Origin: Candidatus Thorarchaeota archaeon
Lineage (GTDB): Archaea > Asgardarchaeota > Thorarchaeia > Thorarchaeales > Thorarchaeaceae
Assembly: GCA_008080745.1 (NCBI GenBank)
Contig: SHMX01000005.1
Location: forward strand, 120,001 to 152,000
Direction: 5' to 3'
DNA length: 32,000 bases
In this document: in pieces, positions 1-32,000 of the stretch
How the letters are laid out: every line of letters begins with the position of its first letter
How positions within the stretch are numbered: the stretch's first letter is position 1
Notes under the pieces: model-generated
Database searches by the model: none
Told to the model about the DNA's origin: nothing
The model's input: the letters and a program-made list of their open reading frames with translations, nothing else
Position numbers and translations under genes: made by a program

Positions 1-2
1 AA

Positions 3-884
3 AGCAATGCCCTCATATGGGGTGCGGAACGCGATCTATCATCCGATAATATACAGTCTCGAATTTTTCAGCAGCTAAGTCTCAATCGAATTGAAATGAA
101 TGCATGGGATATGACTGAAACGCAGATGCGTAAATTTGCTATAAAGGTACAAAAACAAAGACCAAGAATTTTAGCTGGCTACGCGGGTGCTGTAGCTATA
201 TTCGCAAAATTCACTCTAGAGAACAACATTGATTTGAAATTTGATAGTGGCATTGTAGTTTCAGGTGAATTACTGACCGATCAAAATAGAGAAATTATTG
301 AAACCGCATTTGGTTCAAAAATCTTTAACCGATATGGTACGCGAGAGTTTGGTTCTATTGCACACGAATGTTCTTGCCACGATGGTCTTCATATTAATGG
401 TGAGAGCTTCATAATAGAACAAGGCGAAAAATACGATGATGGTTATTCTCTATTAGTAACTGATCTGAATAATTTCGCTATGCCAATGATCCGTTATGAG
501 ATTGGGGATGTTGGTCTTCTATCTACTAGAAAATGTAAATGCGGTCGAGGGCTTCCTCTTCTCGAAACCATTTTAGGTAGAACCACAAGTTACATCATCA
601 CCCCTCAAGGCTCTTATGTTAATGGAATCGTCTTCCCTCATCTTCTTCGCGATTATGGCGAGATTCTAGAATTTAGAGTAATTCAACAAAATATTGATGA
701 AATTGATATCTTTTTAGTATTAAAGAACCCTCTAGATGAAAAGCAAAAAGAGAGCATTCGAAGACGTCTGAGCAATTTCCTCCAATCAATTAGAATCAAT
801 CTTATTGAAGTTGACAAGATATCTCTTGCAGATTCGGGAAAGAGAGATCTTGTGACCTCCAAGCTTGTCTTGGAAATGGATTAG
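3..884 (+). CDS. Phenylacetate-CoA ligase/CapK-like adenylate-forming (ANL) enzyme, 5'-truncated by the window
   Basis: The frame is open from position 3 (SNALIWGAERD...), so the ORF-track start at 96 is internal. Motifs: LAGYAG, SGELL, NRYGTREFG, ECSCHDGLH, LVTDLNNFAMPMIRYEIGDVG, CKCGRGLP, GRT. Confidence 0.85.
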   Translation, partial: SNALIWGAERDLSSDNIQSRIFQQLSLNRIEMNAWDMTETQMRKFAIKVQKQRPRILAGYAGAVAIFAKFTLENNIDLKFDSGIVVSGELLTDQNREIIETAFGSKIFNRYGTREFGSIAHECSCHDGLHINGESFIIEQGEKYDDGYSLLVTDLNNFAMPMIRYEIGDVGLLSTRKCKCGRGLPLLETILGRTTSYIITPQGSYVNGIVFPHLLRDYGEILEFRVIQQNIDEIDIFLVLKNPLDEKQKESIRRRLSNFLQSIRINLIEVDKISLADSGKRDLVTSKLVLEMD

Positions 885-905
885 GACTAAGTGGTGTTAT
901 GAATA

Positions 906-2087
906 ATGAAACAGATTTCAGTAGGTCGTTTTTGCACTCGTATTTTTCCTGACAGAGGGGGACCTGCAAAACACGCTCACAAATTGTCAGAGGCATTGGA
1001 ACATATTGGGGTTAAAAATTGTGTTATTGCTAGCAAGTATTGTAAGAAAAGGAGTGCTGATAGAATATACTCCTTTCATCCTTTACCCATTTGTTCACCA
1101 TCAACTCAAACCAATCCACTATCAATGCTCCTATTTACACTCAGCTTCTTTGTTCTCGGTATTCTCTATTCTCTGGTTTATTTTCTTCGTTCAAGAGTAG
1201 ATTTGATACACGCACACAGTCCAGCCATTTCAGGAATTATTTCTTTAGCAGTTTCGAAAATACTCAGAAAACCCCTTATCATCACCATTCATGGATTTGC
1301 AGGTCCCAAACTATCCTGGGCCCCCAACTCTGGCAGCTATATTGAATTTCTTCTGGAAAAAACTGTACTTAGAAATGCAGATCACGTAATTACGGTATCT
1401 CCAGATTATCGGCATCTAATCGAACTCTATTCTCCTCAAACATCGTATTCTATCATCGGTAATGGTGTTGATATTGAATACTTCTCTCCCGCATCAGGAG
1501 ATGATGAGAAGAAAAAACTATTACTCGAATTAGGATTAGACGAATCCTCTGATATTGTAACTTGGGTGGGAAATCTGAATCTAGAAGAAAAAGTTCGTGG
1601 TGTTAGAGATCTAATCCAAGCCATTGATATTTTGGTGAATCTGAGAAAGATTGATTGTGATGTTTTGCTTGTTGGGGGTGGAACTCACATTGATCAGATT
1701 TCAGCATTGATTAATCAATATAATCTTGAACAGTCGGTTCACTTACTTGGATTCCGCGATGATATTCAAACAATATTGCAGGCGTCGGATATTTTCGTAC
1801 TACCATCTCATCATGAGGGCTCTCCTAATTCTTTGCTTGAGGCTCTTTCTTGTGGCGTAGTTTCTATTGCAACTCATGTTGGTGGGGTTCCTAGAATATT
1901 GGGGGACACGGGATATCTTTTCAGACCTGGTGACTCCGAAACGCTGGCAAGACATCTACAGCATATGCTTGCGAATCCCGATGATCGACATCAGCTCTCA
2001 CTCAAATCACGGTCTCGTGCCGAATCAGCTCTATCATGGGAAACTATTGCACATAAAACAACTGTGCAATATCAACTTCTAATTTAG
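906..2087 (+). CDS. Glycosyltransferase family 4 (GT-B, retaining)
   Basis: IHAHS, ITIHG, IGNGVD and the EX7E motif FVLPSHHEGSPNSLLEALSCG. Confidence 0.92.
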   Translation: MKQISVGRFCTRIFPDRGGPAKHAHKLSEALEHIGVKNCVIASKYCKKRSADRIYSFHPLPICSPSTQTNPLSMLLFTLSFFVLGILYSLVYFLRSRVDLIHAHSPAISGIISLAVSKILRKPLIITIHGFAGPKLSWAPNSGSYIEFLLEKTVLRNADHVITVSPDYRHLIELYSPQTSYSIIGNGVDIEYFSPASGDDEKKKLLLELGLDESSDIVTWVGNLNLEEKVRGVRDLIQAIDILVNLRKIDCDVLLVGGGTHIDQISALINQYNLEQSVHLLGFRDDIQTILQASDIFVLPSHHEGSPNSLLEALSCGVVSIATHVGGVPRILGDTGYLFRPGDSETLARHLQHMLANPDDRHQLSLKSRSRAESALSWETIAHKTTVQYQLLI

Positions 2088-3806
2088 CAGGAACACATGT
2101 ATTCTTGATATATTTACTAGATGTTGATATCCTTCCTCAAACAATTCTTGATATAGTGATTCATGTTGTTTCACGATAATCAAAATATCTGAGTTGAAGG
2201 ATAAGAGATACGATTTTAGATTTTCGAGATTTCCTTCCCTCAATGTTTCATTTGCAATACATTGTTTTGGGTATACAATTGCATAGCTTCCTATCCATCT
2301 CTCATATGTGAATACAATCTTATCATCGTCTTGATTCTCACGTATCCAATCCAATATTTGCATCTCTTCAGACGATATTGTTCTTGAATTGATATACAAG
2401 TATGAAATACCATACACCAATTGAAAGGATATTATCACAGTAATGATTGATGCTTTGAGTATCTTTGACTTGTGAGGAATTTTTGGTAAGCGTGAATCGT
2501 CTTGCCTAATATTATCAATTAAAGTCACAACTACTTGAGCCATGAGAATAGAAGCTGGAAATACGATAAAGGTTGCAGATCGAGGGGCGCTATACACGAA
2601 GAATATTATTGGTACGAATTCTGATGCTGCCCATAATACACACACGGTCCATGCGGTGACTGTCCACTTCTTGTCATGTATTCCCACAATAAATTGTAGC
2701 ACACCAACTAAAGAAAGACCGAATAGGACTGGGCCAAGAGAATATCCAATCATTAGTTTTAGCGAGCTATCAATTGAATCTATGGGGTCAACCACAGTGG
2801 TTGTTTCAACAGGATTTCCATAAAATCCATATCTTGCAAATATGTCATTGTTGAGAGCTATTGAAATTATTGCTGGTATGCAGAAGATTACGAGAGGTAG
2901 AATATATTTCATTCCTATCTGTATCGATTTTTTTATTGATGGTATTTGTTGGAATTTGATATTATTAAGGAAGAATATTCCAAATGCAATGAGAGCCGTT
3001 GTTGGATGGTAGATTACAATCCCCGCCAACAAAAGGGAAGTCAGATATGGTGATTTTCCATCATATATGTAGAGGTATGAGAGGAAAACGATAAATAGAA
3101 AAATTGCTAGAGTTTCAGGAGTTGCTAATCGTCCTCTAAATTGTAGGAGGTTACCTACCGCAAAAGCCATACTAATTATAACTGGCGCATATTCATTCCC
3201 GAAATATCTCCTTGAAACTACATAAACTACCATTATCGTGAAAAATGAAATGATTGGTGGAAAGAATCTCATTAAACTATAGACTGAATCGTAATTCGTA
3301 CCAAAATCTGCAAGTGACACAATGAGGAACACAAATCCTGCTGGATATGCTTTTAGTGATGTATAGTCTATTGTTCCTGTGTGTTGAAGATATCTGGCAT
3401 TATATAGCCATAACCATGGATCAAGAGTGGATATTACAGGACTATGTAAAACACTTCTGAGTCTTAGAAGTAATCCAAATAATGAAATTACGAAAGCTAG
3501 AACGACTGGCACTAAATACTGAGATTTTATTTTGGGCGTGTCTAGCTTCCATACCATACCTTGTTTTTTGTACACAATGAATGATACAAACGCCGTAATG
3601 CATACCATTATGATGTATAATGTGAGGACGCTGAAACCAACAGAAAGGAGCACTAGATAACCAGCTATTCCAAGCAACGATAAGCCAACTGCTGAACCAA
3701 GTATCAGCAAATCAACCAGAGAATACTGCTCTCTTTGCAAGAAAGGGGAAGCTATTGCTACCCCTGAAATCAATATAGTGAATACGGTAATCATCGCTGT
3801 TATCAA
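2079..3806 (-). CDS. Multi-pass membrane protein, GT-C/AglB-like architecture (putative lipid-linked-sugar transferase)
   Basis: Many hydrophobic segments; first-loop LDPWLWLYNARY followed by YPAGF; soluble C-terminal domain starting EEMQILDWIREN. TTG start preceded by GTGAGG. The 3' end overlaps the upstream GT4 by 9 bp. Confidence 0.65.
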   Translation of the reverse strand: MITAMITVFTILISGVAIASPFLQREQYSLVDLLILGSAVGLSLLGIAGYLVLLSVGFSVLTLYIIMVCITAFVSFIVYKKQGMVWKLDTPKIKSQYLVPVVLAFVISLFGLLLRLRSVLHSPVISTLDPWLWLYNARYLQHTGTIDYTSLKAYPAGFVFLIVSLADFGTNYDSVYSLMRFFPPIISFFTIMVVYVVSRRYFGNEYAPVIISMAFAVGNLLQFRGRLATPETLAIFLFIVFLSYLYIYDGKSPYLTSLLLAGIVIYHPTTALIAFGIFFLNNIKFQQIPSIKKSIQIGMKYILPLVIFCIPAIISIALNNDIFARYGFYGNPVETTTVVDPIDSIDSSLKLMIGYSLGPVLFGLSLVGVLQFIVGIHDKKWTVTAWTVCVLWAASEFVPIIFFVYSAPRSATFIVFPASILMAQVVVTLIDNIRQDDSRLPKIPHKSKILKASIITVIISFQLVYGISYLYINSRTISSEEMQILDWIRENQDDDKIVFTYERWIGSYAIVYPKQCIANETLREGNLENLKSYLLSFNSDILIIVKQHESLYQELFEEGYQHLVNISRIHVFLLN

Positions 3807-5575: not shown

Positions 5576-8455
5576 TCATAATACTCGATATATCTGGACA
5601 GAATCCAGAATAAATATCCAATTCTTTGTCATACTTAGAAATCCAAAACTCAATGATTCAAAACTGCCGTCTGCGGTCCCTGGAGTATTTGTAAGATTCC
5701 ATGTTTGAACAATCCATTGACTTTTCAATGGCAAGTAGTCCGTGTAGAACGAATACCCTCCACTGATATTATCATTATGAAATCCAAAAGCTCGTACCCC
5801 AAGTCCAGAAGTGTTACACTTGTATTTCACCGTAAGAAACATACCCTGCAAACTTTCCATTGAAATGTTGTTTGTAAACAGGTGGTACCAGTAATCTGGA
5901 TTTGCGCTATTCTTTAGTATACAGGTTCCATTCTCAATGATTGGATCTCCCCCCTCATTTGTATACCATGTTGAGTTTACTTCGAATTCTTCTTGATAAA
6001 CGGTGAACTCCTCTTGAATTGGAATATAATCAAGTTCTCTAGCACCATAGATTTTCACATCGTCGATAAATACTATCCAATTATTTTCACTATTGAAGAA
6101 ACTAAAACTCAAGGATTCAAATGGCGTGTTTCTCTCAATCATAATCTCAGTGATATTCCAAGAATAGAGCCTCCAACTAGTAAGGGGATATGTATAGTCG
6201 GATTGAAAGATTCTTTGTCCCTCTAGAAGATCGAATTCATACCCAAAAAGCCTGCATTCAAGATTTGTGGTATTAGTTCTAATCTTTGCTTCCAGATAGA
6301 TATTGTTAACATTTTTGAAACTCATAATATTTGTGAATACGTTATACCACGCAGATTCATGGGATCCTTTCTCAAGTGCTATCTGTTCATTAGATGGTTC
6401 AAGCATTCCTTCATTATCGAACCATTGTGAATCCTCATTGAATGTTTCGTTATAGTATATACTAACATTGTTCTTGCTTAGTATATACACTGCACCAAAT
6501 TTGGCTTCGACTGTGTACTTCGGTGTGAAGAACTTTGCCCACGACTCTCTTTCTAATCCATATCGTCCTACATATAGTGCAGTCTTTATTTTGATGTTTT
6601 CCTGAGCATGCCAGACCCAATCTGTTGTTCGTGGAGATATGAGGATATAGTCTATCCCATTTGTAGTAGATGCGATATTATCGTAATATTCGTCTTCCTC
6701 CCATGCGCTCTCATTGAAGAAATTGAAAATCTGGGGTCTAAGCGGTTGTGTATAAAACCGTTCGTCATTAATGAAATAATAGGATGCACTTGTCAGAATC
6801 TGTGCTCGTAACATTAGCCCAGTTGCAGGATCTGTTAGCACATAATCATCTCCAGATACTCTGCTGTCGAGCCATTGGAATGCATCCATTTCATCTTGAC
6901 GTGGGCCCTGGAGGTCCCATCTTACCGTTTCACTGATTGCTTGAACAGATGCTATCGTAGGTATTGCTAACATCAGAATCATCAATAGTGAAATGGTTCT
7001 TTTTTTATTCAATGTTGGTCTTGTGAAATTTATATTAAGAATACTAACAAAAGCTTTGGATATTGTATAAGCTCCTATTACAATAGCTAACATGATGAAT
7101 GGACGAATATACAGGTCTACCCTTGCAGCAGTAGCTACTGGTAGGAAGAATGCGAGTAGATATAAACAAAGGATTGAAAGAATGATCGTAGAGTTATTTA
7201 CTTGTACAAAACTTATTTTATTATGTGATAGTAGAGCTAGCACCATAATTCCACCCAACAGAAAAAGAATGAATAACCAATGATATGCTCTTGAAAAGAT
7301 TGCTACTTGTAGGGTTAAATTATTGGTCAATCTTAGAAAACCAATACCAAAATTCAGTTCAAAGGGTTGTATTCCAATTAATGGAAGGATGAAATAGTAG
7401 CTAGTAAAAAACACAAGACCTAACAGTATCCCAATCCATATTAAATCGATAATATATTCTGATATCTTTCTATTTTTATAGAAGAAGTAGAGTATTGCTG
7501 GAATTGTTCCTAAAATAGCGTAGGGATACAATACCAATAGGACCAAATAAGCTATGGCTGTGGTGACTTTAACCATTCTATTGTTATTGTTATTAACAAG
7601 AGCGATAATTGTAAGACAATAAATTAGAAATGCATAGGTTGACGTATACAAGTATTGAGGACCCAATAACACCCCTGCTTCATTGACAAGGGGAAATATG
7701 CTTGAAGCAACTATGGAGATTGTTTTGTTTTGAGTAAGTGTCTCCAATAAATGATAGATGAATAATAGTGCAATTGGATAAATTATTACTGGTGCTTGAC
7801 GAAATATGAACGATGGTTCTACTTTTGAGATGATTGCCATTGCGGCTATTGTAGGATGAAATCTATAGGGATATGAATCAAAAAGGAAACTCCCACCATT
7901 ATTTTCTAATAGAAAATTGACTGCAGTAAGGTGATACTGTAGATCACTTCCCGTCGTTGCAGGCCAATGCAATAAAGATAGTCTATATATAATGAATGTA
8001 AAAGCAACCAGTATACAAATTGCGATGCTAATAATCTTCATCCTGTCAAAAGTGATCGTCCTACTTGAGCTAGAGGAAAATGCTTTTTTTGATTTAAAAT
8101 AGATAAACAATCCAATACTAACTGCTCCAACGGATAGTATTGGAATTACTAATGTTAGTAAAAATAGTGATGCAAATAGCAGACATGTCCCCGTAAATAT
8201 TATTGAACTCATGAGAATATCAAGTGAAAGTGTTACTAGAAATCCAAATCTTCCTGAATGTTTATCATATATGAGATTGAAAGCGTTTCTAATCAAATTA
8301 CCTAATATAAAGAATCCAAATATCATGCTCAGAACAATTGATATAATCCCCAATCCTATCATTGATGTGAAATACATCCCTCCTATTACCATAAAATGGC
8401 CTAATAGTTTCTGCTCTAAATTGTATTCTATATTATACTCTTGATTAGGGAACAT
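5576..8455 (-). CDS. Large GT-C/AglB-like membrane protein with two tandem C-terminal beta-rich domains
   Basis: About 500-aa transmembrane region with loop SDLQYH; then EMDAFQWLDSRVSGDDYVLTDPATG (STT3-like soluble-domain start); then two alignable ~137-aa repeats. Confidence 0.65.
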   Translation of the reverse strand: MFPNQEYNIEYNLEQKLLGHFMVIGGMYFTSMIGLGIISIVLSMIFGFFILGNLIRNAFNLIYDKHSGRFGFLVTLSLDILMSSIIFTGTCLLFASLFLLTLVIPILSVGAVSIGLFIYFKSKKAFSSSSSRTITFDRMKIISIAICILVAFTFIIYRLSLLHWPATTGSDLQYHLTAVNFLLENNGGSFLFDSYPYRFHPTIAAMAIISKVEPSFIFRQAPVIIYPIALLFIYHLLETLTQNKTISIVASSIFPLVNEAGVLLGPQYLYTSTYAFLIYCLTIIALVNNNNNRMVKVTTAIAYLVLLVLYPYAILGTIPAILYFFYKNRKISEYIIDLIWIGILLGLVFFTSYYFILPLIGIQPFELNFGIGFLRLTNNLTLQVAIFSRAYHWLFILFLLGGIMVLALLSHNKISFVQVNNSTIILSILCLYLLAFFLPVATAARVDLYIRPFIMLAIVIGAYTISKAFVSILNINFTRPTLNKKRTISLLMILMLAIPTIASVQAISETVRWDLQGPRQDEMDAFQWLDSRVSGDDYVLTDPATGLMLRAQILTSASYYFINDERFYTQPLRPQIFNFFNESAWEEDEYYDNIASTTNGIDYILISPRTTDWVWHAQENIKIKTALYVGRYGLERESWAKFFTPKYTVEAKFGAVYILSKNNVSIYYNETFNEDSQWFDNEGMLEPSNEQIALEKGSHESAWYNVFTNIMSFKNVNNIYLEAKIRTNTTNLECRLFGYEFDLLEGQRIFQSDYTYPLTSWRLYSWNITEIMIERNTPFESLSFSFFNSENNWIVFIDDVKIYGARELDYIPIQEEFTVYQEEFEVNSTWYTNEGGDPIIENGTCILKNSANPDYWYHLFTNNISMESLQGMFLTVKYKCNTSGLGVRAFGFHNDNISGGYSFYTDYLPLKSQWIVQTWNLTNTPGTADGSFESLSFGFLSMTKNWIFILDSVQIYRVL
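5588..5998 (-). repeat. Protein-level repeat unit 2 (YQEEF...DSVQIY) of the 959-aa protein
   Basis: Same conserved blocks as unit 1, in the same order and with near-identical spacing. Confidence 0.85.
6047..6454 (-). repeat. Protein-level repeat unit 1 (YNETF...DDVKIY) of the 959-aa protein
   Basis: Aligns with unit 2 via shared Y.E.F, S.W..NEG, WY..FTN, NT..L..R.FG, DY, W....WN.T, FESLSF.F and NW....D.V.IY. Confidence 0.85.
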
Positions 8456-21881: not shown

Positions 21882-22714
21882 AACGAATTGTTTGCTTTAC
21901 TCTAGATGTTGAGCCAGATTATGGGCAGGATCACATAGACAATATTGAATTAGTAGAAGAGTTGATTGAGGAATCTACTTTTTTAGACTTGATTTCTAGT
22001 CCGATAGAATTCAAATTAACCGCTTTCGTAGTTGGATCAATACTGGAAAAAAATCCGGAAATTGTTGACCGTCTAATAGAGTTCGATGCTGAAGTCGAAC
22101 TTCATTCATACAGTCATAAAATGTATAGAGAACGTCGTCCTGATATTGTCAGAGGCCTAGATATATACCGTGAAATAGTGGGACGTCTACCATATGGATA
22201 TCGAGCACCACAGGGAGCGATTTCTTTAGAAGAGATAGAAGTTCTTGACAGTTATGGGGTTTTATTTGATTCTAGTGTATTTCCTTTTTTTAGATTGGGG
22301 CAGTACAGTTTTTTTCATGCACCTCAAACTCCCTATCTTATTAGAAATTCTTCTGTAGTTGAATTTCCCATTGCATCAATTCCGCATCTTCGGTTGCCCA
22401 TATCTCTAAGCTATATGATGCTGTTTGGAAGAAGTATCTATGAACGATTATTCAGGACTTTCGGATTACCCGAAATACTTGTTTTTGACTTTCATTTACA
22501 CGATTTAACTCCCTCAAAAGCGTATAATGATCTATCAAAATTTTGGCAGATTATATATGGCAGGATTTACAAACAGAATCCGATAGAACAATTTCAAAAT
22601 TTTGTATCTTACCTAAGAAATCTAAACTATACTTTTATGAATATGAGAGAGTTATATAATTATATTCGCAAAAACAAATTTAATGAATTTTTGAAAACAT
22701 CTGCTTTTGGATGA
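21878..22714 (+). CDS. Polysaccharide deacetylase family protein (NodB/CE4-like)
   Basis: FTLDVE, LTAFVVG, ELHSYSH, GYRAP, FDSS, FDFHLHD. The TTG start overlaps the formyltransferase TGA (TTGA). Confidence 0.85.
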   Translation: MKRIVCFTLDVEPDYGQDHIDNIELVEELIEESTFLDLISSPIEFKLTAFVVGSILEKNPEIVDRLIEFDAEVELHSYSHKMYRERRPDIVRGLDIYREIVGRLPYGYRAPQGAISLEEIEVLDSYGVLFDSSVFPFFRLGQYSFFHAPQTPYLIRNSSVVEFPIASIPHLRLPISLSYMMLFGRSIYERLFRTFGLPEILVFDFHLHDLTPSKAYNDLSKFWQIIYGRIYKQNPIEQFQNFVSYLRNLNYTFMNMRELYNYIRKNKFNEFLKTSAFG

Positions 22715-23745: not shown

Positions 23746-23748
23746 AAA

Positions 23749-24768
23749 ATGGATTATTCAAAAATTCTGGATAAGTATGAAAACTCTGTAGTTTTGATTA
23801 CTGGTGGTGCTGGATGTATAGGCAGCAATCTTGTACGGATATTATTATCAGGTAGTCCACGAAAGGTGATTGTTCTTGATGATTTCTCCTCCTCTTATCT
23901 ATGGAATCTGCCAAAAGATAATCGACTTGATGTTGTGGAGGGAAGCATTCTCGAAGAACAGAAATTGAAACAGGTATTTTACGAACGCCCTGATTTTGTT
24001 TTTCATCTAGCAGCCCATTTTGCAAATCAAAATAGTATCGACCATCCTGAAACCGATTTAATGGTAAATGGTCTTGGTCATCTTCGTATCATGGAATATG
24101 CCAGACTCACTGAACCCCAGAGAGTATTCTTTGCCGGTTCTGGTTGTTCTGTTTATGGAAGTCATGCTCCAATTCCCTTCAAGGAAACTATGGTATCCCT
24201 TACTCTTGATACACCCTATCAAATTCACAAATTACTCGGAGAACTATATTGTAATCACTATCATGAAACTTATGATCTAAAGACTACAAATGGCAGATTT
24301 TTCAATGTCTTTGGACCTGGTGAAGTCCCAGGTCCCTATCGAAATGTCATTCCAATCTTTACCTGGCGGGCAATGCATGAAAAACCTCTACTTATTACCG
24401 GAACTGGTGATGAAACTCGTGACTTCGCTTATGTAGGTGATGTTGTAAATGGAATCCTTCGAATGGGTGTTTTTGAAAAGGCAGTGGGTGAAGCAATAAA
24501 TCTCGCGTCAGGAAAAGAAACCAGCATCAAAGAGCTGGCTACACTCATCAATGAGATTACAGGTAACCCTGCTGGAATTGAATATCGTCCAAAGAGATCC
24601 TGGGATAAATCCAATAGACGTCTTGCCTCTATTGCAAAGGCAAAGGAATTGATTGGATATGAACCTCAGATGGAATTCAAACAGGGTCTCAAAAATGTTC
24701 ACGGGTGGTTGAAATCTTACAAATCTAATATTGTTGAGAGTATTGGGCCCTCTGCAGGTTTGTGGTAA
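23749..24768 (+). CDS. Extended SDR, WbmF-like putative nucleotide-sugar 3,5-epimerase
   Basis: TGGAGCIG, HLAAHFANQNS, FAGSGCSVYG, PYQIHK, RFFNVFGPGE, NLASGKETSIKELATLINEITGN, PKRSWDKS. These blocks match my recollection of Bordetella WbmF. SDR call is firm; the 3,5-epimerase function is inferred. Confidence 0.7.
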   Translation: MDYSKILDKYENSVVLITGGAGCIGSNLVRILLSGSPRKVIVLDDFSSSYLWNLPKDNRLDVVEGSILEEQKLKQVFYERPDFVFHLAAHFANQNSIDHPETDLMVNGLGHLRIMEYARLTEPQRVFFAGSGCSVYGSHAPIPFKETMVSLTLDTPYQIHKLLGELYCNHYHETYDLKTTNGRFFNVFGPGEVPGPYRNVIPIFTWRAMHEKPLLITGTGDETRDFAYVGDVVNGILRMGVFEKAVGEAINLASGKETSIKELATLINEITGNPAGIEYRPKRSWDKSNRRLASIAKAKELIGYEPQMEFKQGLKNVHGWLKSYKSNIVESIGPSAGLW

Positions 24769-24955: not shown

Positions 24956-26392
24956 CTACGATACCAAATCTTTCACATGAAATATTCCCACCACATTAGT
25001 TCTCCCTGGAATATGTTTCACGCCTGAGGTGAAAACGATATCCTTTCCGATATCCAACAATCCTTGGTGAAAAACTGTTCTCACAGCTTCCTTTACTAAA
25101 TCATCCACACTATCCAAGTCCTGCTCATATTTTACCGAGTGTACTCCCCATAGCAATCTTAGCCGTCTCATTACCGTAGCATCTCTTGCAACAGCATAAA
25201 TATTCGTTGGTGGCCTGAATTTTGATATCCATCTTGCTGTAAAGCCACTTCGGGTTGCTGTAACAATTCCATCTATTTTATCGGGAAGAAGTGATACTGT
25301 GTTGTATACAAGATTACCAATGACCTCTACAATCATTTTCTTGGGTGAAGTGATATCCATCGGATCAACGGGAGTTATTCGTTTCTCAGCACGGCGTATG
25401 ATTCGATTCATAAGTGAAACAGCAGCAGGTGGATTGTGCCCCATTGCGGTTTCTCCACTTAGCATGACTGCGTCAGCTCGGTCAAATATAGCATGAGCTA
25501 CATCACTGACCTCTGCACGAGTAGGCATACTCTCATGAGTCATGGATTCTAGCATGTGAGTTGCTACAATTGACGGTCTTGCCCACATGTTAGCCTTTCT
25601 AATGAGGTCTCTCTGGAGCACAGGAACCTCTTCTATGGGTGCTTCTATTCCAAGATCACCTCGAGCTATCATGACACCATGTGACTCGCGCAGAATCTCA
25701 TCATAATTATCTATGGCAAGTTTATGTTCTATCTTGCTTATCAGGTCAACATTTTTAGGTCCATTCTCTCGAACGATATCATCTACCCTTTTCACGTCGT
25801 CTGCATCGAGAACAAAGGAGAGAGCAATCAGGTCAGGTTCAATTTCCGCTGCTAGATCCAAGTCATCTAAATCCTTCTCGGTGGGAAGGTGACAGGATAG
25901 ACGGATTCCAGGCACATTAACACCTTTTCTGCTGGATATCGGACCGCCTTGTACAATTTCTGTGACAACCTCTGAGCCCTCAGTCGACTTGACCATGAGT
26001 CGCACGATTCCGTCATTAATAGCGATAAAGTCTCCGGGGTTAACATCATCTGGAAGTTCTTTATGTGAGACCGATACTCGATGTTCATCACCAACAAAAT
26101 CTTCAACTGAGATTCTGAATTCATTACCTGTTTCAAGCTCAACTGGTTCTTGCATCTCACCTATACGAATCTTTGGACCCTGAAGATCTATAAGCACTGC
26201 AATAGTATCATCCACTGACCGAATTGTTTCCAGAGTCTTTTTTGCGGTGGGGTGGTCCTCGTGTGACATATTGATTCTAGCAACGTCCATACCTGCCTCA
26301 ATCATTTTTACTAGTACACCCTCAGAACGAGAAGCGGGGCCAATGGTACATACTATCTTGGAGCGGGTCATTTCATTCATTATCGATACCAA
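24956..26392 (-). CDS. pyk: Pyruvate kinase (K+-independent signature)
   Basis: KIVCTIGPAS, RINMSH, DLQGPKIRIG (Leu/Gln/Lys/Ile signature of the K+-independent cluster), KIEH, ARGDLG, TRAEVSD, MLSGETA. The true start may be one of the downstream Mets (MNEMTRS). Confidence 0.97.
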   Translation of the reverse strand: MVSIMNEMTRSKIVCTIGPASRSEGVLVKMIEAGMDVARINMSHEDHPTAKKTLETIRSVDDTIAVLIDLQGPKIRIGEMQEPVELETGNEFRISVEDFVGDEHRVSVSHKELPDDVNPGDFIAINDGIVRLMVKSTEGSEVVTEIVQGGPISSRKGVNVPGIRLSCHLPTEKDLDDLDLAAEIEPDLIALSFVLDADDVKRVDDIVRENGPKNVDLISKIEHKLAIDNYDEILRESHGVMIARGDLGIEAPIEEVPVLQRDLIRKANMWARPSIVATHMLESMTHESMPTRAEVSDVAHAIFDRADAVMLSGETAMGHNPPAAVSLMNRIIRRAEKRITPVDPMDITSPKKMIVEVIGNLVYNTVSLLPDKIDGIVTATRSGFTARWISKFRPPTNIYAVARDATVMRRLRLLWGVHSVKYEQDLDSVDDLVKEAVRTVFHQGLLDIGKDIVFTSGVKHIPGRTNVVGIFHVKDLVS

Positions 26393-26557
26393 CTCTTATT
26401 CTCTACTTTAGCAGATATAGGTGATTGTCTATTGAAGCATATGCTCATAGACCTATTCATCATCTACCATTTCATCATTTGAATGTATCATTGGCATAGA
26501 TTCAATTATGACTTGGTCTATAGTTTCTCTTGAGAAAGATTAAGGATTGTTTCTATA

Positions 26558-27856
26558 ATGGTCAAGATTAAGAATATTCATGCTATGGAGATATTAGACT
26601 CTCGTGGAAATCCAACGTTGATGGCAAAAGTCACTCTAACAGATGGAAGCACGGGGGTGGCTCGTGTTCCAAGTGGCGCATCTACTGGAGCTAATGAAGC
26701 TCTGGAACTACGGGATGGTGGTTCTCGCTATGGTGGAAAAGGAGTTCAGAAAGCGGTGGGTCATGTCAACAAGACTATCGCAGAAAATCTAACTGATTTT
26801 GATCCGTTATCTCAGAAGGCAATAGATGATGCCATGATTGCACTCGATGCTACAAAAGACAAGTCAAACTTTGGTGCTAATGCAATTCTTTCTGTTTCAA
26901 TGGCGACAGCGGTAGCTGCAGCTACACATCTGGAATTGCCCTTGTTTGAGTATCTGCGAACCAAAGTCTTGGGAATGCCTCCAAAATATCTGCAACCAGT
27001 TCCGATGTCGAATGTCATCAATGGTGGTTCTCATGCAGGAAATGATTTAGCAATACAAGAGTTCATGATTCTCCCTGTTGGAACAGATAACATCCTTGAT
27101 GCTGTTCGAATGATTGCGGAGGTCTATCATAAACTTGGAAAGAACATGGTTGCAAAATATGGTCGTATGGCTAAACATATCGGTGATGAGGGTGGTTTCT
27201 GCGGCTTTGGATTGAGGTCGACTGCAGATGCGATTGAGGAAATTCTCAAGGCAGTAGTTGATGCAGGTTATTCTCCCAAAGATGATATTGTTCTGGGTAT
27301 GGATGCAGCTGCGACAGAGTTTCATGCTGGTGGTAAGTATACCATCGATGGCAAGACTCTTGATTCTGGTGAACTTCTTGAGTTTTATCTTGGACTCGAA
27401 AAGACCTATCCTCTCAAGACACTTGAAGATCCATTCGATGAGTCCGCCTTTGTTGATTTCACTGAACTTACCAAAAAGACCGAGATGCAGATTGTAGCAG
27501 ATGATCTGACGGTATCCAATCCTGATATTGTAAAGAAGGCAATAGAAGTGGGTGCAGGTAATTCTTTACTATTGAAAGTGAACCAGATTGGAAGTGTGAC
27601 AGAAGCTATTGAGGCAGCTCGGCTTGCGAATGATGCCAAATGGTCGGTCGTAGTAAGCCATCGAAGTGGTGAAACCTGTGATACATTTATTGCAGACTTA
27701 GCAGTTGGATTGAGCACCGGACAGATTAAGACTGGAGCTCCAGCAAGAAGTGACCGAGTTGCAAAGTACAATCGTCTACTTGAGATAGACACAATCCTTG
27801 AAGGAGAATGTTCCTATCCCGGAAGGGATTTTGATACTGCATGGAGGAACTTCTAG
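26558..27856 (+). CDS. eno: Enolase (phosphopyruvate hydratase)
   Basis: EILDSRGNPT, VPSGASTG, EALELRD, QEFMI, GDEGG, EDPF, DDLTV, LLKVNQIG, SHRSGET, GQIKTGAPARSDR. Confidence 0.98.
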   Translation: MVKIKNIHAMEILDSRGNPTLMAKVTLTDGSTGVARVPSGASTGANEALELRDGGSRYGGKGVQKAVGHVNKTIAENLTDFDPLSQKAIDDAMIALDATKDKSNFGANAILSVSMATAVAAATHLELPLFEYLRTKVLGMPPKYLQPVPMSNVINGGSHAGNDLAIQEFMILPVGTDNILDAVRMIAEVYHKLGKNMVAKYGRMAKHIGDEGGFCGFGLRSTADAIEEILKAVVDAGYSPKDDIVLGMDAAATEFHAGGKYTIDGKTLDSGELLEFYLGLEKTYPLKTLEDPFDESAFVDFTELTKKTEMQIVADDLTVSNPDIVKKAIEVGAGNSLLLKVNQIGSVTEAIEAARLANDAKWSVVVSHRSGETCDTFIADLAVGLSTGQIKTGAPARSDRVAKYNRLLEIDTILEGECSYPGRDFDTAWRNF

Positions 27857-27859
27857 GCA

Positions 27860-29101
27860 ATGACGGAAAAGAGAGCTGCCATTCTTTTAGTGATGGACGG
27901 TGGAGGTGATCGTGGAGTCAAAGACTTGGACGGACAGACTCCGTTTCAAGCGGCTCATACCCCTAATCTCGATAGCTTAGCCAAGTCCGGACAAAATGGC
28001 CTTCTCGATGTCATTGGCCCTGGAATCACTCCCGGAAGTGATACTGCACATCTGGCTTTGTTTGGATATGACCCTGCTAGCACCTATCCTGGTCGAGGGC
28101 CATTAGAGGCATTAGGAGCGGGTCTTGATTCTCGTCCTGGGGATGTTGCATTTCGCTCAAATTTTGCTACCGTTAATGATGACATGGTAGTTCTTGATAG
28201 GCGTGCTGGACGTGACTTCACAGAAGAAGAGGGGAAGGCATTCAAGGAGGTTATCGACAAGCTGACTATCGAAGATGTAACTGTCCACTTCACCCATACT
28301 GTTGAGCATCGGGGTGCGCTTATTCTTCGAGGACCAAATCTTTCAGCAGATATCACTGACATAGACCCTCATGAAACTGGTGAAAAAATCCTTACCTGCG
28401 AAGCTGAGAATGAAGAAGCTGAAAAAACTGCGAGAATAATCAATAAGATGATTGAAGAGGTTCATAATCGAATGAAGGGTCTCAAAGTAAATCAAGAAAG
28501 GGAGGAGCGAGGATTGCCTCCAGCCAATGTTCTTCTTCTTCGAGGCCCCGGCAAACATCAAAATGTTTCCACATTACAGAATCGTTTTGGAATCCGTTCT
28601 GCAGTTATTGCTGGTGGTGCATTGTATATTGGGACAGCTAAATATGTCGGAATGGAGCACCTGCCTGTTGATGGACAGACTGGAACCATTGAAACCAACT
28701 TCACCAACATTGCAAAAAAGACCATTGAGGCTGTAGAAACGGGGTTTGACTATCTATTCCTTCATATCAAAGCTACTGATAATGCAAGCCATGATATGAA
28801 CTATGAAGAGAAGATATTGGCAATTGAGAAAACAGATGAGATGATCGGGCGAATTCTAGAAAGAGTATCAGATAAGATTGTTATCGGTATAACCGGAGAC
28901 CATACTACTCCCGTTACAGTGGGCGATCATACATGTGACCCAGTTCCCTTGACCATCTGGGCTGATTTCATTCGTTCTGATGATGTAGAACACTTTTCTG
29001 AGTTCCATGCAGCTAATGGTTCACTACATGGGATTAGGGGAAAAGATGTGATGAACTTACTTTTAGGCTATGCAGGACATATTGAGAAATATGGAGCATA
29101 A
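27860..29101 (+). CDS. apgM: 2,3-bisphosphoglycerate-independent phosphoglycerate mutase, archaeal type
   Basis: MDGGGDR, TPNLD, PGSDTAHL, YPGRGPLEALG, AFRSNFAT, EHRG, HIKATDNASH, TGDHTTP. Starts 3 nt after the eno stop. Confidence 0.95.
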   Translation: MTEKRAAILLVMDGGGDRGVKDLDGQTPFQAAHTPNLDSLAKSGQNGLLDVIGPGITPGSDTAHLALFGYDPASTYPGRGPLEALGAGLDSRPGDVAFRSNFATVNDDMVVLDRRAGRDFTEEEGKAFKEVIDKLTIEDVTVHFTHTVEHRGALILRGPNLSADITDIDPHETGEKILTCEAENEEAEKTARIINKMIEEVHNRMKGLKVNQEREERGLPPANVLLLRGPGKHQNVSTLQNRFGIRSAVIAGGALYIGTAKYVGMEHLPVDGQTGTIETNFTNIAKKTIEAVETGFDYLFLHIKATDNASHDMNYEEKILAIEKTDEMIGRILERVSDKIVIGITGDHTTPVTVGDHTCDPVPLTIWADFIRSDDVEHFSEFHAANGSLHGIRGKDVMNLLLGYAGHIEKYGA

Positions 29102-29129: not shown

Positions 29130-30473
29130 CTATCTCTTTATGCCAGACTTGCCGACTGCTCTGTACTCAAAACCTGCTTTTTCCACACTTTTCTGGTCCC
29201 AGACGTTTCTTCCATCCACAATTATTGGTGTCCGCATGATTGATTTCAATTTCTCTAAATCGGCATCAAAGTATTCTTTATGTTTGGTCACTAATACTAG
29301 ACAATCCGCGTCTTTGGCGCAATCGTATAGATCTCGCTCGATCTCGTGTTGTGTGAACTCCCATTGATGCACATATGGATCATGCAATACCAGTGTTGCT
29401 CCTTTGGTCTGAAGAGATCCAATCAATGGAACTGCTGGTGTATTTCTGGTGTCATCAGCGTTCTCAAGGTATGCTACTCCAAGTACGACAATTTTCGCGT
29501 CGTGTACAGATACACCTCTTGCGAGAAGTGCATTCTCAACAAGATTGGAGAGATGAACTGGCATGTGATTGTTGATACGCCGTGCGACAGATATGAACTC
29601 AGGCTCAATCTTCCATGAACCATATTCATAGAGCCCAAATCTTAGAAGCCAAGGATCTTTTGGTAAACAGTGTCCGCCTACTCCAGCTCCTGGAATATGC
29701 ATGTGCCTGTCGTGGCGTGCATTAATCAATTCAATTATCTCGTATATATTTACTCCAAGACTCTCACAGACCAGAGCCATCTCATTGGCAAATGCGATAT
29801 TCACATCTCGGTATGCATTCTCAATAGTCTTTGCTAGTTCTGCACTCAGAGTATCGGTTGTATATATCTTCTCTTTGATAATTTTCGAGTACATCTCAAG
29901 GGCTCGTTCGGTACTCTTTGGTGTAATACCACCTACTACTCTGGGCATATTTACAATGAATTCGAGAAGTTTCCCTGGCATAACTCGTTCGTATGAGAAT
30001 GCAAGATCAAAATCTTCTCCACCCTTTAGGCCCGATTCTTTCTCAAGGATTTTTTGGACTACATTTTGAGTTGTTCCTGGAGCAACTGTTGACTCAACTA
30101 CAACCATAGCTCCCTTTTTCATTCTCTGTCCAATGTTTTTGCTTACCTCTCTTAAGGACACATACTGGGGCATATTTTGGGCATCGGTTGGTGTCTGCAC
30201 ATCGATAAGGATGATGTCTGCATCTTTTAGGATATCGATGTCATCTGTTACTCTGAATGTACCCTTTTCAACTACTTTGGCAATCAATTCATCTAGGCCA
30301 GGCTCATCACCCTCAAAGGGGGATTTTCCACTATTGAGCACATCTATCTTCCAACCGGAACGCTTTGATCTACGTTGCAGACCTATTACATCATAACCAT
30401 CCACATCAGCAAGCAAAGCCGCTGCTGGAATTCCTACATAACCCATACCAATTACAACAATCCTTGTAGTCAT
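29130..30473 (-). CDS. UDP-N-acetylhexosamine 6-dehydrogenase (WecC/WbpA-type nucleotide-sugar dehydrogenase)
   Basis: GMGYVG, VQTP, ESTVAPGTT, ERVMPG, ELAKTIENAYRDVNIAFANE, GVGGHCLPKDP, LGVAY, DTRNTP, IVDGRN. Confidence 0.92.
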   Translation of the reverse strand: MTTRIVVIGMGYVGIPAAALLADVDGYDVIGLQRRSKRSGWKIDVLNSGKSPFEGDEPGLDELIAKVVEKGTFRVTDDIDILKDADIILIDVQTPTDAQNMPQYVSLREVSKNIGQRMKKGAMVVVESTVAPGTTQNVVQKILEKESGLKGGEDFDLAFSYERVMPGKLLEFIVNMPRVVGGITPKSTERALEMYSKIIKEKIYTTDTLSAELAKTIENAYRDVNIAFANEMALVCESLGVNIYEIIELINARHDRHMHIPGAGVGGHCLPKDPWLLRFGLYEYGSWKIEPEFISVARRINNHMPVHLSNLVENALLARGVSVHDAKIVVLGVAYLENADDTRNTPAVPLIGSLQTKGATLVLHDPYVHQWEFTQHEIERDLYDCAKDADCLVLVTKHKEYFDADLEKLKSIMRTPIIVDGRNVWDQKSVEKAGFEYRAVGKSGIKR

Positions 30474-30719: not shown

Positions 30720-31403
30720 GTGATTCAAATAAAATTTCCAATCTCAAGTTTTACCGTGCGTGCCATAAAAAATCGGGTAAAAAGGATAGTAACAAGAAAG
30801 AGATCGATTAAATTCCCTAATCCCTGGATGGAAGCTGAAGAGATAGCTTTGATTGATCACTTATTCGGACGTGTGGCACCAGAGCGATGTCTGGAATGGG
30901 GCTGTGGTGGAAGTACCCTGCATTTTTCAAAGATACTTCAAGACACATCATGGGATTCAATTGAACATGATTTTCGTTGGTATAAGATTATATCCAGCTA
31001 TCTAGAACCAAAGCCAAATTGTACAATTCATCATGTTCCTTTTGGTAGTGAAACAGATTCCAGTCAAGAAGAGGTCGAGTCCTATGTCAATTTTCCTGAC
31101 ACCCTGGGAGGAGATTTTGACTTTATTCTGGTTGATGGCCGGAAGCGTGTCAAGTGTCTGAGAAAAACAAAAGACATCCTCAGTAGAAGAGGAATTGTGA
31201 TGCTTCATGACGCTGGTCGTGCTCGCTATCAGAGCGGACTGGAGGGATTTGCTTTTGGATATATGTTTAGATTACCCTGGTATCATATTGGTGTATGGGT
31301 TGGTGGAATGAACAAGTCATTGGTGAAATATTATGGTATTGATGGGCTATTCAAAGAATGGCAGATGCTCTTATATCTCTATGATTTTATTGGACTATAT
31401 TAG
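30720..31403 (+). CDS. Class I SAM-dependent methyltransferase (probable glycan O-methyltransferase)
   Basis: PWM, LEWGCGGST, SIEHD, FDFILVDGRKR, LHDA. The start is uncertain (GTG 30720 or ATG 30828). Confidence 0.75.
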   Translation: MIQIKFPISSFTVRAIKNRVKRIVTRKRSIKFPNPWMEAEEIALIDHLFGRVAPERCLEWGCGGSTLHFSKILQDTSWDSIEHDFRWYKIISSYLEPKPNCTIHHVPFGSETDSSQEEVESYVNFPDTLGGDFDFILVDGRKRVKCLRKTKDILSRRGIVMLHDAGRARYQSGLEGFAFGYMFRLPWYHIGVWVGGMNKSLVKYYGIDGLFKEWQMLLYLYDFIGLY

Positions 31404-31515
31404 TTTATGAATTTAGAAACCAATCTTCGTATTTGCACTAACTTATCATACATCCCTGATTGTACAATTGAATGGGTATAATCGTTTTCTAACTAATTAA
31501 TAATCTCTTTCAAAT

Positions 31516-31998
31516 CTATCGGAATTCTTCTATATACATGATTCTCATTTCGAATGCTTCTGCAAATTCCTCTCCCACAAAAGGACCTCTATAGCGCATA
31601 TTAGCTTCTAGACTCTTTCTAGAAAAATACGGTCTTCTTTCCAATTCGGATTTATACTCCCAAAGCGCTTTAAGTTTGGTTTCAACCTCCTTTTTAGTTA
31701 GTGGAACGAAAACGTTGGGTGAAAACCCTTGACAGTCCAAGGGCACTTCATAACTCAATAAAGTAGATTTTGTCCCCTTAAACGCTCTGAATGCCTCATG
31801 AGCTATAACTGCATGGTCTTGATGCACATCTTTTTCCCAATGAGTGAATACAATATCAAAATGAGTTTCTTTTCTAAGATCATAGAGATATTGGAGAATT
31901 TCTTGTCGATAAGCAGGTAATTTTCTAACAGGGAAGTCTAGTATTCTCAGATCTTGAATCCCAACAATCTTCGAGGCATTGACACATTCTTTTCTTCT
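31516..31998 (-). CDS. PIG-L/LmbE-family de-N-acetylase, 5'-truncated by the window
   Basis: The frame is open from 31998 (RRKECVNASKIVG...FDIVFTHWEKDVHQDH), then LLSYEVP, PNVFV, KLKAL..YKSE, AEAFE. The ORF-track start at 31827 is internal. Confidence 0.85.
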   Translation of the reverse strand, partial: RRKECVNASKIVGIQDLRILDFPVRKLPAYRQEILQYLYDLRKETHFDIVFTHWEKDVHQDHAVIAHEAFRAFKGTKSTLLSYEVPLDCQGFSPNVFVPLTKKEVETKLKALWEYKSELERRPYFSRKSLEANMRYRGPFVGEEFAEAFEMRIMYIEEFR

Positions 31999-32000
31999 GA

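Follow-up and report, generated by a model that had tools for sequence, protein, structure and literature searches.

The region described here is a stretch of 32,000 nt (the window; G000:C5:120001-152000) from a metagenome-assembled genome (MAG) of Thorarchaeota (Asgard archaea) from marine sediment. The window contains 24 genes and is the right half of a ~67-kb hypervariable surface-glycan island. Families were assigned with Pfam and NCBIfam, and calls below equivalog cut-offs are marked as such. The genes are listed below by position in the window (aa, amino acids; SDR, short-chain dehydrogenase/reductase; GT-C, glycosyltransferase of the C fold; units B and C are defined in the next section).

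1-884, plus strand: 3' part of a PaaK/F390-synthetase-like adenylating ligase (446 aa in full; gene start upstream at C5:119544)
906-2087, plus strand: GT4 glycosyltransferase of unit B (Pfam Glycos_transf_1 and Glyco_transf_4)
2079-3806, minus strand: GT-C protein P0002 (575 aa, ~12 transmembrane segments), assigned by fold, a remote relative of P0003
4040-5479, plus strand: Wzx/MOP-type flippase of unit B (Polysacc_synt, 31.8 bits against a cut-off of 28.2; ~10-13 hydrophobic segments)
5576-8455, minus strand: GT-C protein P0003 (959 aa), AlphaFold2 (AF2) model with an STT3-like core and two domains like carbohydrate-binding modules (CBMs)
8555-9508, minus strand: extended SDR of unit B, like TviC (UDP-N-acetylglucosaminuronate 4-epimerase) and GalE (Pfam Epimerase)
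9757-10887, plus strand: GT4 that opens the six-gene operon of unit C (Pfam; 45% orthologue in genome G079)
10901-12058, plus strand: polysaccharide pyruvyltransferase (PS_pyruv_trans, PF04230, 58.2 bits against 25.3; 13-nt overlap with the next GT4 gene)
12046-13233, plus strand: GT4 coupled to the pyruvyltransferase (Pfam; 37-41% orthologues in loci L144 and L145)
13315-14439, plus strand: GT4 (Pfam)
14481-16199, plus strand: GT-C protein P0004 (572 aa), RgtA/AftB/ArnT-like (Atlas model)
16218-17723, plus strand: Wzx/MOP-type flippase of unit C (Polysacc_synt, 31.9 bits against 28.2)
17726-19570, minus strand: GT-C protein P0005 (614 aa), PMT_2-like (Atlas model)
19633-20844, minus strand: GT4 (Pfam; orthologues of 54% in G079 and 42% in L145)
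21096-21881, plus strand: stand-alone formyltransferase (261 aa; Formyl_trans_N, E 6e-33; 4-nt overlap with the NodB gene)
21878-22714, plus strand: NodB-family polysaccharide deacetylase (Polysacc_deac_1)
22810-23745, plus strand: SDR, homologue of Mth373 (PDB 8w3u/9ar1, E 2.3e-114)
23749-24768, plus strand: SDR, homologue of Mth375, WbmF-type (PDB 6pmh, E 9e-122; WbmF 2pzj, E 8.3e-57)
24956-29101, mixed strands: pyk (minus), eno (plus) and apgM (plus), conserved housekeeping genes and not glycan genes (Pfam)
29130-30473, minus strand: UDP-sugar 6-dehydrogenase, like WecC and UDP-N-acetylmannosamine (UDP-ManNAc) dehydrogenase (NCBIfam NDP-sugar dehydrogenase subfamily, 395.8 bits against 189.8)
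30720-31403, plus strand: probable class-I methyltransferase-like protein that begins a three-gene insertion (Methyltransf_24, E 0.0056, below cut-off)
31516-32000, minus strand: PIG-L de-N-acetylase (228 aa; E 8e-21 on the full gene, which extends to C5:152202)

An earlier note, made from the sequence of the window, had named five GT4s, two flippases, three SDRs and a UDP-sugar dehydrogenase, with a pyruvyltransferase, a formyltransferase, two deacylases and an ANL ligase among the tailoring genes. Pfam and NCBIfam bear out all of these, the flippases as Wzx-type, the deacylases as NodB and PIG-L and the ligase as PaaK-like. The ligase matches the NCBIfam models for PaaK, F390-synthetase-related and DVU_1553 ligases at E 1e-22 to 1e-28, all below the equivalog cut-offs, and has no Pfam match. 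Neither flippase of the window matched an NCBIfam model, and their Pfam margins are small. The SDR at 8555 matches the NCBIfam TviC model at E 1.5e-59, below its cut-off, and has 48-62% orthologues in G052, G001 and G079. The pyruvyltransferase covers positions 1-279 of the 280 in the PF04230 profile and does not reach the CsaB equivalog (57.7 against 213 bits). Its best homologues in the protein database are 32-36% identical, and all carry PF04230.

The formyltransferase matches Fmt, ArnA and sugar N-formyltransferases (ArnA N-domain in NCBIfam, E 6e-28; PDB 1yrw/2bln, E 9e-18). Its translation has the catalytic N-x-H, within N-M-H-G-S-L-L-P, and the later D, within D-T-G, and no match to Formyl_trans_C or the Fmt C-terminal domain. 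By its domain, its N-x-H and D residues and its lack of the tRNA-binding domain, it is classed as a putative sugar N-formyltransferase with a predicted acceptor. The NodB protein matches the NCBIfam XrtA-system deacetylase at E 2e-15, below cut-off, and the ArnD model is absent among its listed NCBIfam matches. For the dehydrogenase, the best specific model is archaeal UDP-ManNAc dehydrogenase (359.7 bits, below the equivalog cut-off of 750). Only the general NDP-sugar subfamily cut-off is passed, and the label of UDP-N-acetylhexosamine (UDP-HexNAc) dehydrogenase is a putative one. The methyltransferase of the earlier note is the weakest call of the inventory; what stands of it is the Methyltransf_24 match, PDB 3cvo ("methyltransferase-like", E 2e-4) and a GxGxG-type motif in the sequence.

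Extent and mosaic structure of the island

The cluster is not confined to the window: the glycan genes continue on both sides, over about C5:86.5-153.4 kb. Twelve of the 15 PF00534 matches in the genome fall in C5:91-140 kb, a clustering of GT4s far beyond chance. The island as a whole contains twelve GT4 matches, at least eight GT-C candidates and ~4 flippases. Upstream of the window are an NTP-transferase, two GT2s, a GT87 GT-C, seven further GT4s, an additional Wzx (Polysacc_synt_3), a second, AglM-like dehydrogenase, two further SDRs, two 870-aa GT-C-like proteins (one with a weak PMT_2 match), two more multi-pass unknowns, an alanine dehydrogenase beside a ligase-like paralogue, a GNAT gene and a DegT gene. 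Downstream are the remainder of the PIG-L gene and then a hexapeptide acetyltransferase (Hexapep and WcaF/WbbJ-like NCBIfam matches). The canonical AglB is on contig C2 (PF02516 at C2:260.7-261.9 kb, the single STT3 match of the genome), with WWDYG at residue 561. The only PF00953 priming enzyme is also on contig C2, unlinked to the island, and no PF02397 priming enzyme was found in the genome. A WecB gene is on contig C1.

The island lies between two conserved anchors. The left anchor consists of the NTP-transferase, a GT2, the GT87 GT-C, two GT4s and a Wzx, a block that is conserved in G001, G005, G052 and G010. The right anchor is pyk-eno-apgM, usually with the UDP-HexNAc dehydrogenase. The pyk-eno-apgM genes occur in the same order at 59-92% identity in all relatives examined. 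The dehydrogenase has 69-94% orthologues, usually next to apgM, and was not seen at the locus in G052; the genes to its right are likewise conserved in the relatives examined. The pyk-eno-apgM genes, and largely the dehydrogenase too, are thus conserved core genes embedded in the island and fall outside the variable set, which narrows the gene set of the earlier note. After the Thorarchaeota, the closest loci to the dehydrogenase region are from Anaerolineae and Desulfobacterales (61-68% identity), and these bacterial relatives hint at an old inter-domain transfer of the dehydrogenase gene (29130-30473).

The flanks are 52-94% conserved in G001, G005, G052, G010 and G079, and the centre differs from genome to genome. 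The compared relatives are MAGs, often broken within the island, and a gene missing from a fetched stretch is not necessarily missing from the genome. GC is low in the centre: unit C has 0.333, compared with a genome value of 0.409 and with 0.435 in pyk-eno-apgM. Each GT-C protein has its own distribution. P0003 was found in two of 40 relatives in the first search and additionally in G052. Among the 71 class genomes, P0002 occurs in one, P0004 in six (28% identity or less) and P0005 in 12 (42% or less). Between the same flanks, the syntenic island of G052 contains orthologues of the GT4 at 906 (43%), P0003 (33%, full length), the SDR at 8555 and P0002 (41%). It also contains the upstream DegT, GNAT, GT4, SDR and 870-aa GT-C genes, and the genes of unit B recur there at 33-56% identity.

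The SDR pair (22810-24768) has orthologues of 50% or more in 17 of 378 Asgard genomes. The SDR at 22810 has 54-74% orthologues in G005, G010, G079, G264, G306, L144 and L145, and in G005, G010 and G079 the pair lies within 4-6 kb of pyk. The nearest homologues of the pyruvyltransferase, in L144 and L145, are each directly followed by an orthologue of the coupled GT4 (12046). In L144 the SDR pair directly precedes the pyruvyltransferase, and the dehydrogenase is also present. In L145 the pair is ~5 kb upstream of the pyruvyltransferase, past a GT4, a methyltransferase and a transposase; this contig also carries an orthologue of the GT4 at 19633, methyltransferases and a 16-segment transmembrane protein that matches the hidden Markov model (HMM) of the P0003 family. 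The transposase of L145 (a contig of Logan ERR14373517; 8956-9579) is of the DDE type and lies between the SDR/GT4 block and the pyruvyltransferase block, which fits module shuffling by mobile elements. In G264 a Wzx, the SDR pair and a PF04230 match are on one 5.8-kb contig. The host GT4s at 9757 and 19633, a Wzx and the SDR pair also have counterparts in G079, which has no pyruvyltransferase there.

Across the Asgard genomes, PF04230 occurs in 33 of 301. A protein search had found no pyruvyltransferase homologue in 86 other Thorarchaeia, and the resulting view of the gene as unique was dropped when a Pfam family search and a large protein database gave diverged relatives. The result of the first synteny comparison, in which unit C was found nowhere else, was overturned for its core genes by the contexts of the pyruvyltransferase homologues and by G079 and G264. 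A link between pyk/eno and the supply of phosphoenolpyruvate (PEP) for pyruvylation was rejected, since the glycolytic genes occupy the same place in relatives without a pyruvyltransferase found at the locus.

Full-length relatives of the formyltransferase occur in two of 300 other Asgard genomes (G018 and G199), both adjacent to a NodB gene. The two genes are therefore adjacent, overlapping or nearly so, and in either order, in three Asgard genomes (L152, G018:C117; L153, G199:C149; and the host). In G018 a second NodB gene lies beside the pair, and in G199 the pair is beside WecB and a GFO/IDH/MocA oxidoreductase. No counterpart of the methyltransferase/PIG-L/acetyltransferase block (30720 to C5:153394) was found in G001, G002 and G004 at the syntenic site, which is bounded by the dehydrogenase and the conserved gene that follows. 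The earlier note had considered that the genes might be unrelated cassettes that never co-occur in relatives. Half of this holds: the full gene set of the window co-occurs nowhere among the loci searched, and its sub-modules do recur.

On these grounds the island is probably a variable mosaic in which several Wzx-dependent assembly units lie side by side, and not one pathway. Unit B (1-9.5 kb of the window and ~11 kb upstream) contains the DegT, GNAT and SDR amino-sugar genes, the PaaK-like ligase, GT4s, a Wzx, the TviC-like epimerase, P0002 and P0003. Unit C (9.7-24.8 kb) contains four GT4s, the pyruvyltransferase, a Wzx, P0004, P0005, the formyltransferase/NodB couple and the SDR pair. It is arranged as a plus-strand operon (GT4, pyruvyltransferase, GT4, GT4, P0004, Wzx), a minus-strand pair (GT4, P0005) and a second plus-strand operon (formyltransferase, NodB, SDR, SDR).

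The host genome is 3.16 Mb. It contains an archaeal small-subunit (SSU) rRNA gene (L001; G000:C2:589938-592348), and the dehydrogenase with its flanking genes has its nearest named counterparts in Candidatus Thorarchaeota and Promethearchaeota MAGs (70-94% identity). The host is therefore a Thorarchaeon, in agreement with the archaeal origin that the earlier note had proposed. The SSU match spans 2411 nt against a model of 1478 positions, which leaves ~0.9 kb of inserted sequence (an intron or insertions). Contigs C14, C15, C17, C18 and C19 (2.4-14.6 kb) have a GC content of 62-65% against ~41% in the rest of the bin and are probably MAG contamination; the quoted contamination is 4.8%. The window stretch is present in only two marine-sediment metagenome DNA runs, both from one study and possibly its source, and the same sequencing-run look-up listed no RNA runs that hold it.

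The GT-C membrane proteins

The four large membrane proteins of the window were predicted to be GT-C enzymes in the earlier note, and their folds agree (AF2 for P0003; Atlas models for P0002, P0004 and P0005). By hydropathy all four have 10-17 hydrophobic segments, and the P0003 model shows the helices. They have no BLAST similarity to each other. A Pfam scan at E 1 gave no match on the four proteins, on the C-terminal part of P0003 or on four upstream unknowns, with the sole exception of one chance-level SGBP match.

Three relatives of P0003 were recovered by a word-indexed search, and an exhaustive profile search recovered at least 219 clusters at 50% identity. An alignment of 60 members of this family has no convincing Pfam match. 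The single-sequence AF2 model of P0003 was unusable (predicted local distance difference test, pLDDT, 38). The model made with the 60-homologue alignment has a pLDDT of 90.8 and a predicted template-modelling score (pTM) of 0.79. It has an STT3-like core at residues 132-664, preceded by four additional helices at the N-terminus and followed by two CBM-like domains of beta-sandwich fold at the C-terminus. The core is closest to yeast STT3 (VIA Z 20.5, 438 residues aligned, root-mean-square deviation (rmsd) 5.7), followed by ALG9 (16.8), PglB (16.5) and AglB (16.4), and it scores Z 13.7-17 across human STT3, AglB, PglB, ALG9, ALG12, DPY19 and AftA. Residues 814-959 match CBM4, CBM11, CBM22 and CBM29 with Z 13-14.5 (CBM4, 14.5) and an rmsd of 2.1, and Foldseek aligned the C-terminal part with tandem CBM22. 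A 1312-aa open reading frame (ORF) in G018 (L004; G018:C45:974-1405) contains a domain that matches the CBM-like unit of P0003 (27% over 144 residues), and its contig also has a P0005-like GT-C.

Two residues of the P0003 family are invariant in the 60 homologues, D171 and R445, and P165, G169, Y391, R451, E522, W528, D542 and W613 are nearly so. In GT-C enzymes an acidic residue is conserved where the first extracytoplasmic loop begins, and D171 fills this position in P0003. In the hhalign profile consensus, the D171 region is aligned to a stretch of P0002 that holds an Asp. P0004 and P0005, as single sequences, have DD at residues 101 and 42. P0002 matches the P0003 family at 93.8% probability and E 1.8e-7 by hhalign and at E 1e-14 with the family HMM, and by these profile comparisons it is assigned as a remote member of the P0003 superfamily. 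This superfamily has at least four members in the host genome; two ~540-aa ORFs outside the island (G000:C7:82763-84391 and C3:97314-98921) match the family HMM at E 5e-11 and 2e-5.

The Atlas model of P0002 has template-modelling (TM) scores of 0.65-0.79 to DUF6541, PMT_2, DUF2206 and ArnT clusters. That of P0004 has TM scores of 0.59-0.75 to RgtA-like, AftB_C and PMT_2 clusters, and the database relatives of P0004 include proteins that carry PF13231 or the name arabinofuranosyltransferase. The ten best family-bearing matches of P0005 are all from the PMT_2 clan (TM 0.53-0.68), with PMT_2 and STT3-N clusters as neighbours. Weak PMT_2 sequence matches were found for P0004 (E 0.0015) and P0005 (E 0.0076). 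Neither the P0003 alignment nor P0004 gave a meaningful match when searched by sequence against the PDB. The upstream convergent pair of 871- and 887-aa multi-pass proteins (G000:C5:108619-113912), of which one weakly matches PMT_2, has 31-34% orthologues in G052, G010, G013 and G079 and is among the more widespread GT-C types of the island.

None of the four window proteins contains WWD or WW.[YWFN]G, and none matches PF02516 (STT3); by its predicted sequence, each lacks the WWDYG motif that defines an oligosaccharyltransferase. P0003 shares with STT3, AglB and PglB (GT66) a core that superposes at Z 16-20.5 over ~440 residues, the invariant Asp in the first outer loop, and a soluble domain after the last helix with a conserved opening, "...DE..A..WL..NT...". 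This opening presumably corresponds to that of STT3. P0003 differs from these enzymes in that its family has TDPxTG where WWDYG would stand, lacks PF02516 and adds the four N-terminal helices and the two CBM-like domains. Because ALG9, ALG12, DPY19 and AftA score almost as high, the comparison supports the GT-C fold of P0003 and not an oligosaccharyltransferase function.

A second comparison is with the mycobacterial AftA, AftB, AftD and Emb enzymes, in which several GT-Cs act in series on a polymer with polyprenyl-phosphate sugars. P0004 has AftB-like structural neighbours, and P0003 matches AftD and AftA. AftD reportedly combines a GT-C core with carbohydrate-binding-type modules, as P0003 does. 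Unlike the mycobacterial enzymes, the window proteins have no AftB_C or Arabinose_trans Pfam match, and they come from a host of another domain. It is a tentative idea, and one we rate as doubtful, that the P0003 type is an undescribed GT-C family (an STT3-like core without WWDYG, invariant Asp and Arg, often C-terminal CBM-like domains, no Pfam model) that would act as polymerase or ligase on the extracytoplasmic side in a pathway dependent on Wzx and independent of Wzy, building a true cell-surface polysaccharide (glycocalyx or capsule) and not only N-glycans.

Sugar precursors, assembly and alternative pathways

The SDR at 22810 matches Mth373 over 303 residues, and entries for human UXS1 at E 1e-28. 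Mth373 has been crystallised with UDP-xylose and assigned to the UDP-glucuronate (UDP-GlcA) decarboxylase/UDP-xylose synthase type (PMC12820599). Its close homologue here would have the same putative activity. The alignment of the SDR at 23749 places S-G-C and Y-Q-I-H-K opposite S-G-C and Y-Q-V-T-K of Mth375 (S-x-C, Y-x3-K active site); Mth375 is a WbmF-type enzyme of unsettled activity (PMC12820599). The earlier note had compared the locus with wbm of Bordetella, and the matches to WbmF and Mth375 agree with that comparison. The same note had suggested an L-aminuronic acid as a possible building block. This is not upheld, since the SDR beside the WbmF-type enzyme matches the Mth373 decarboxylase and points to a pentose instead. 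An anionic glycan, which it had also proposed, is plausible given two UDP-sugar dehydrogenases and the pyruvyltransferase.

The only Asgard N-glycans analysed contain a pentose and amino-acid-modified HexNAc (PMC11284389). These sugars are compatible with a UXS-type enzyme and PaaK-like ligases, as a lead. The alanine dehydrogenase of the island (G000:C5:105930-108531) adjoins a 467-aa protein without a Pfam match, whose matches in relatives fall at the same positions as those of the PaaK-like ligase. The alanine dehydrogenase and this ligase paralogue, taken with the Thr/Ser-modified HexNAc of the other Asgard archaeon, suggest amino-acid amidation of a uronic acid.

In the proposed mechanism, the GT4s of each unit would build oligosaccharides on dolichyl phosphate at the cytoplasmic face, with priming by enzymes whose genes lie elsewhere, either the single AglH-type enzyme or GT2s. 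The pyruvyltransferase would pyruvylate these oligosaccharides from PEP, and Wzx would flip them. Outside the cell, the GT-C enzymes would extend, branch, polymerise or ligate them with lipid-linked donors. Their acceptors are more likely to be glycans than protein Asn, because WWDYG is missing and P0003 has CBM-like domains. NodB and the formyltransferase would most likely exchange an N-acetyl for an N-formyl group on a HexNAc-type sugar, a swap that is favoured because WecB adjoins the pair in G199.

Several points weigh against a mosaic of separate units with these functions. The alignments of the P0003 family with the single P0004 and P0005 sequences are not significant by hhalign. Only the P0003 model was searched against solved structures, and the GT-C call for the other three depends on the Atlas models and weak sequence matches. 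The gene families, folds, synteny and mosaicism are features of the DNA and models themselves; all donors and acceptors are deduced from the genes, as would be the order of steps and the number of products. The unit boundaries rest on operon layout and co-travelling genes, and one product may draw on both units. The GT-C enzymes could also have lipids as acceptors or, like PMT, protein Ser/Thr.

A different reading, which we consider unlikely for the island as a whole and which may hold for individual units, is that the island makes only variants of AglB-dependent N-glycans. The GT-Cs would then be AglS-like and add single sugars from dolichyl-phosphate sugars to a protein-attached glycan, with no free polymer. 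The genome has the canonical AglB, the island has two short GT2s, and the AglD/AglR/AglS system of Haloferax is a precedent (PMC3871713); unusual modified sugars and a pentose are also found in the only Asgard archaeon studied (PMC11284389). Against this, the count of at least eight GT-C candidates and twelve GT4s is far above that of any described archaeal N-glycan pathway, and neither AglB nor the priming enzyme is linked to the island. The two CBM-like domains of P0003 also resemble those that polymer-acting GT-Cs such as AftD are said to have.

The earlier note had read the whole window as one pathway for one anionic glycan, in which an L-aminuronic acid would carry a stack of pyruvyl, formyl, methyl and acyl groups and all four GT-Cs would take part. 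All the genes are contiguous and of low GC, and a HexNAc-type dehydrogenase, a TviC-like epimerase and a WbmF-type SDR are present. The SDR pair, the pyruvyltransferase, GT4s and sometimes the dehydrogenase and a methyltransferase also recur together elsewhere. This reading is nevertheless improbable. There are two flippases in the window and ~4 in the island, and the sub-modules are distributed differently among relatives. The stacked decorations separate into independent insertions: the formyltransferase and NodB travel as their own pair, and the methyltransferase/PIG-L/acetyltransferase block was inserted separately on the far side of pyk-eno-apgM. The WbmF-type enzyme, whose own activity is unsettled, is paired with an SDR of the UDP-GlcA decarboxylase type, an activity that leads to a pentose (PMC12820599).

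It is also improbable that unit C holds an Arn-like aminopentose pathway. In such a pathway, the Mth373-type SDR would convert UDP-GlcA to a 4-keto-pentose, DegT would aminate it, the formyltransferase would protect it and a GT2 would load it on dolichyl phosphate. After flipping, NodB would deformylate the sugar, and P0005 or P0004 (PMT_2/ArnT-like) would transfer it to a surface glycan or lipid. The ArnA N-domain matches of the formyltransferase fit this scheme, as does its translational coupling to NodB, a member of the ArnD superfamily, but no ArnD model is listed for NodB. The UDP-GlcA decarboxylase-type SDR is next in the same operon and ArnT-like GT-C proteins adjoin, but Mth373 is assigned as a UDP-xylose synthase and not as an enzyme that releases the 4-keto-pentose (PMC12820599). 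DegT, GT2s and a UDP-Glc dehydrogenase are within the island, but unit C has no aminotransferase or GT2. The only DegT is ~25 kb upstream and travels with GNAT in unit B, and other modules, at a distance of 25-50 kb, hold the aminotransferase and GT2s. The neighbours of the formyltransferase/NodB pair in G199, WecB and the GFO/IDH/MocA oxidoreductase, point to HexNAc chemistry, and the SDR pair is widespread without a formyltransferase.

Related systems and significance

The arrangement of several Wzx-dependent units in a variable island has precedents, and the locus belongs to the known variable surface-glycan islands, as a large variant rich in GT-Cs, and is not a new kind of system. The earlier note knew of no characterised archaeal locus that is comparable. 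One is on record, Mth370-Mth380 of Methanothermobacter thermautotrophicus, which contains the SDR pair, an RgtA/B/C/D-like GT-C (Mth371), GT2s like dolichyl-phosphate-mannose (Dol-P-Man) synthase, an RfbU-like GT4, a Wzx (Mth379) and a WbpP-type epimerase (PMC12820599). The two loci share the same SDR pair. Mth370-Mth380 is much smaller, with one GT-C, and its host has pseudomurein. As listed, it has no pyruvyl- or formyltransferase, NodB, PIG-L or PaaK-like ligase (PMC12820599).

The agl genes of Haloferax share the logic of assembly on dolichyl phosphate, a Wzx-like flippase, a lipid-fed transferase outside the cell and transfer to protein by AglB. There, AglD is a Dol-P-Man synthase (GT2), AglR is a flippase and AglS is an outside Dol-P-Man mannosyltransferase (PMC3871713). 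As in the island described here, cluster content differs strongly between close relatives; the alternative glycosylation cluster agl5-agl15 varies among them (PMC5867893). Haloferax has a single outside transferase, whereas the island has at least eight GT-C candidates of families without a Pfam model and an unlinked AglB. The described Haloferax pathways involve neither pyruvylation nor formylation, and both gene types are present here.

Bacterial Wzx/Wzy O-antigen and capsule loci, including wbm of Bordetella, have the same low-GC variable centre between conserved flanks. They share GT4s, Wzx, SDRs, uronic-acid dehydrogenases, the WbmF-type SDR and formyl-, pyruvyl- and acetyltransferases with the island. 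Unlike these loci, the window has no match to the Wzy, Wzz or WaaL families. GT-Cs with ArnT/STT3-like folds are found where a polymerase or ligase is expected, the carrier is presumably dolichol and the gene for the priming enzyme lies outside the locus.

Eukaryotes have their closest known relatives in the Asgard archaea, whose cell surface has hardly been described; glycan data exist for one species only (PMC11284389). From this locus, Thorarchaeota seem to maintain a large glycan island whose genes are quickly reshuffled. Islands of this type usually belong to surfaces exposed to pressure from phages or from partner recognition, examples being bacterial serotype loci and the alternative clusters of Haloferax. 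The island is also unusually rich in GT-Cs, and the GT-C fold is used by the lumenal glycosylation machinery of the eukaryotic endoplasmic reticulum. The presence of the Mth373/Mth375 pair in a lineage that is not known for pseudomurein bears on its proposed role in pseudomurein-sugar synthesis. The newest element of the locus is the Pfam-invisible, STT3-like GT-C family with CBM-like domains. This well-modelled, unannotated family, the recurrent NodB/formyltransferase couple and the Mth373/Mth375 SDR pair provide three handles on the Asgard cell surface.

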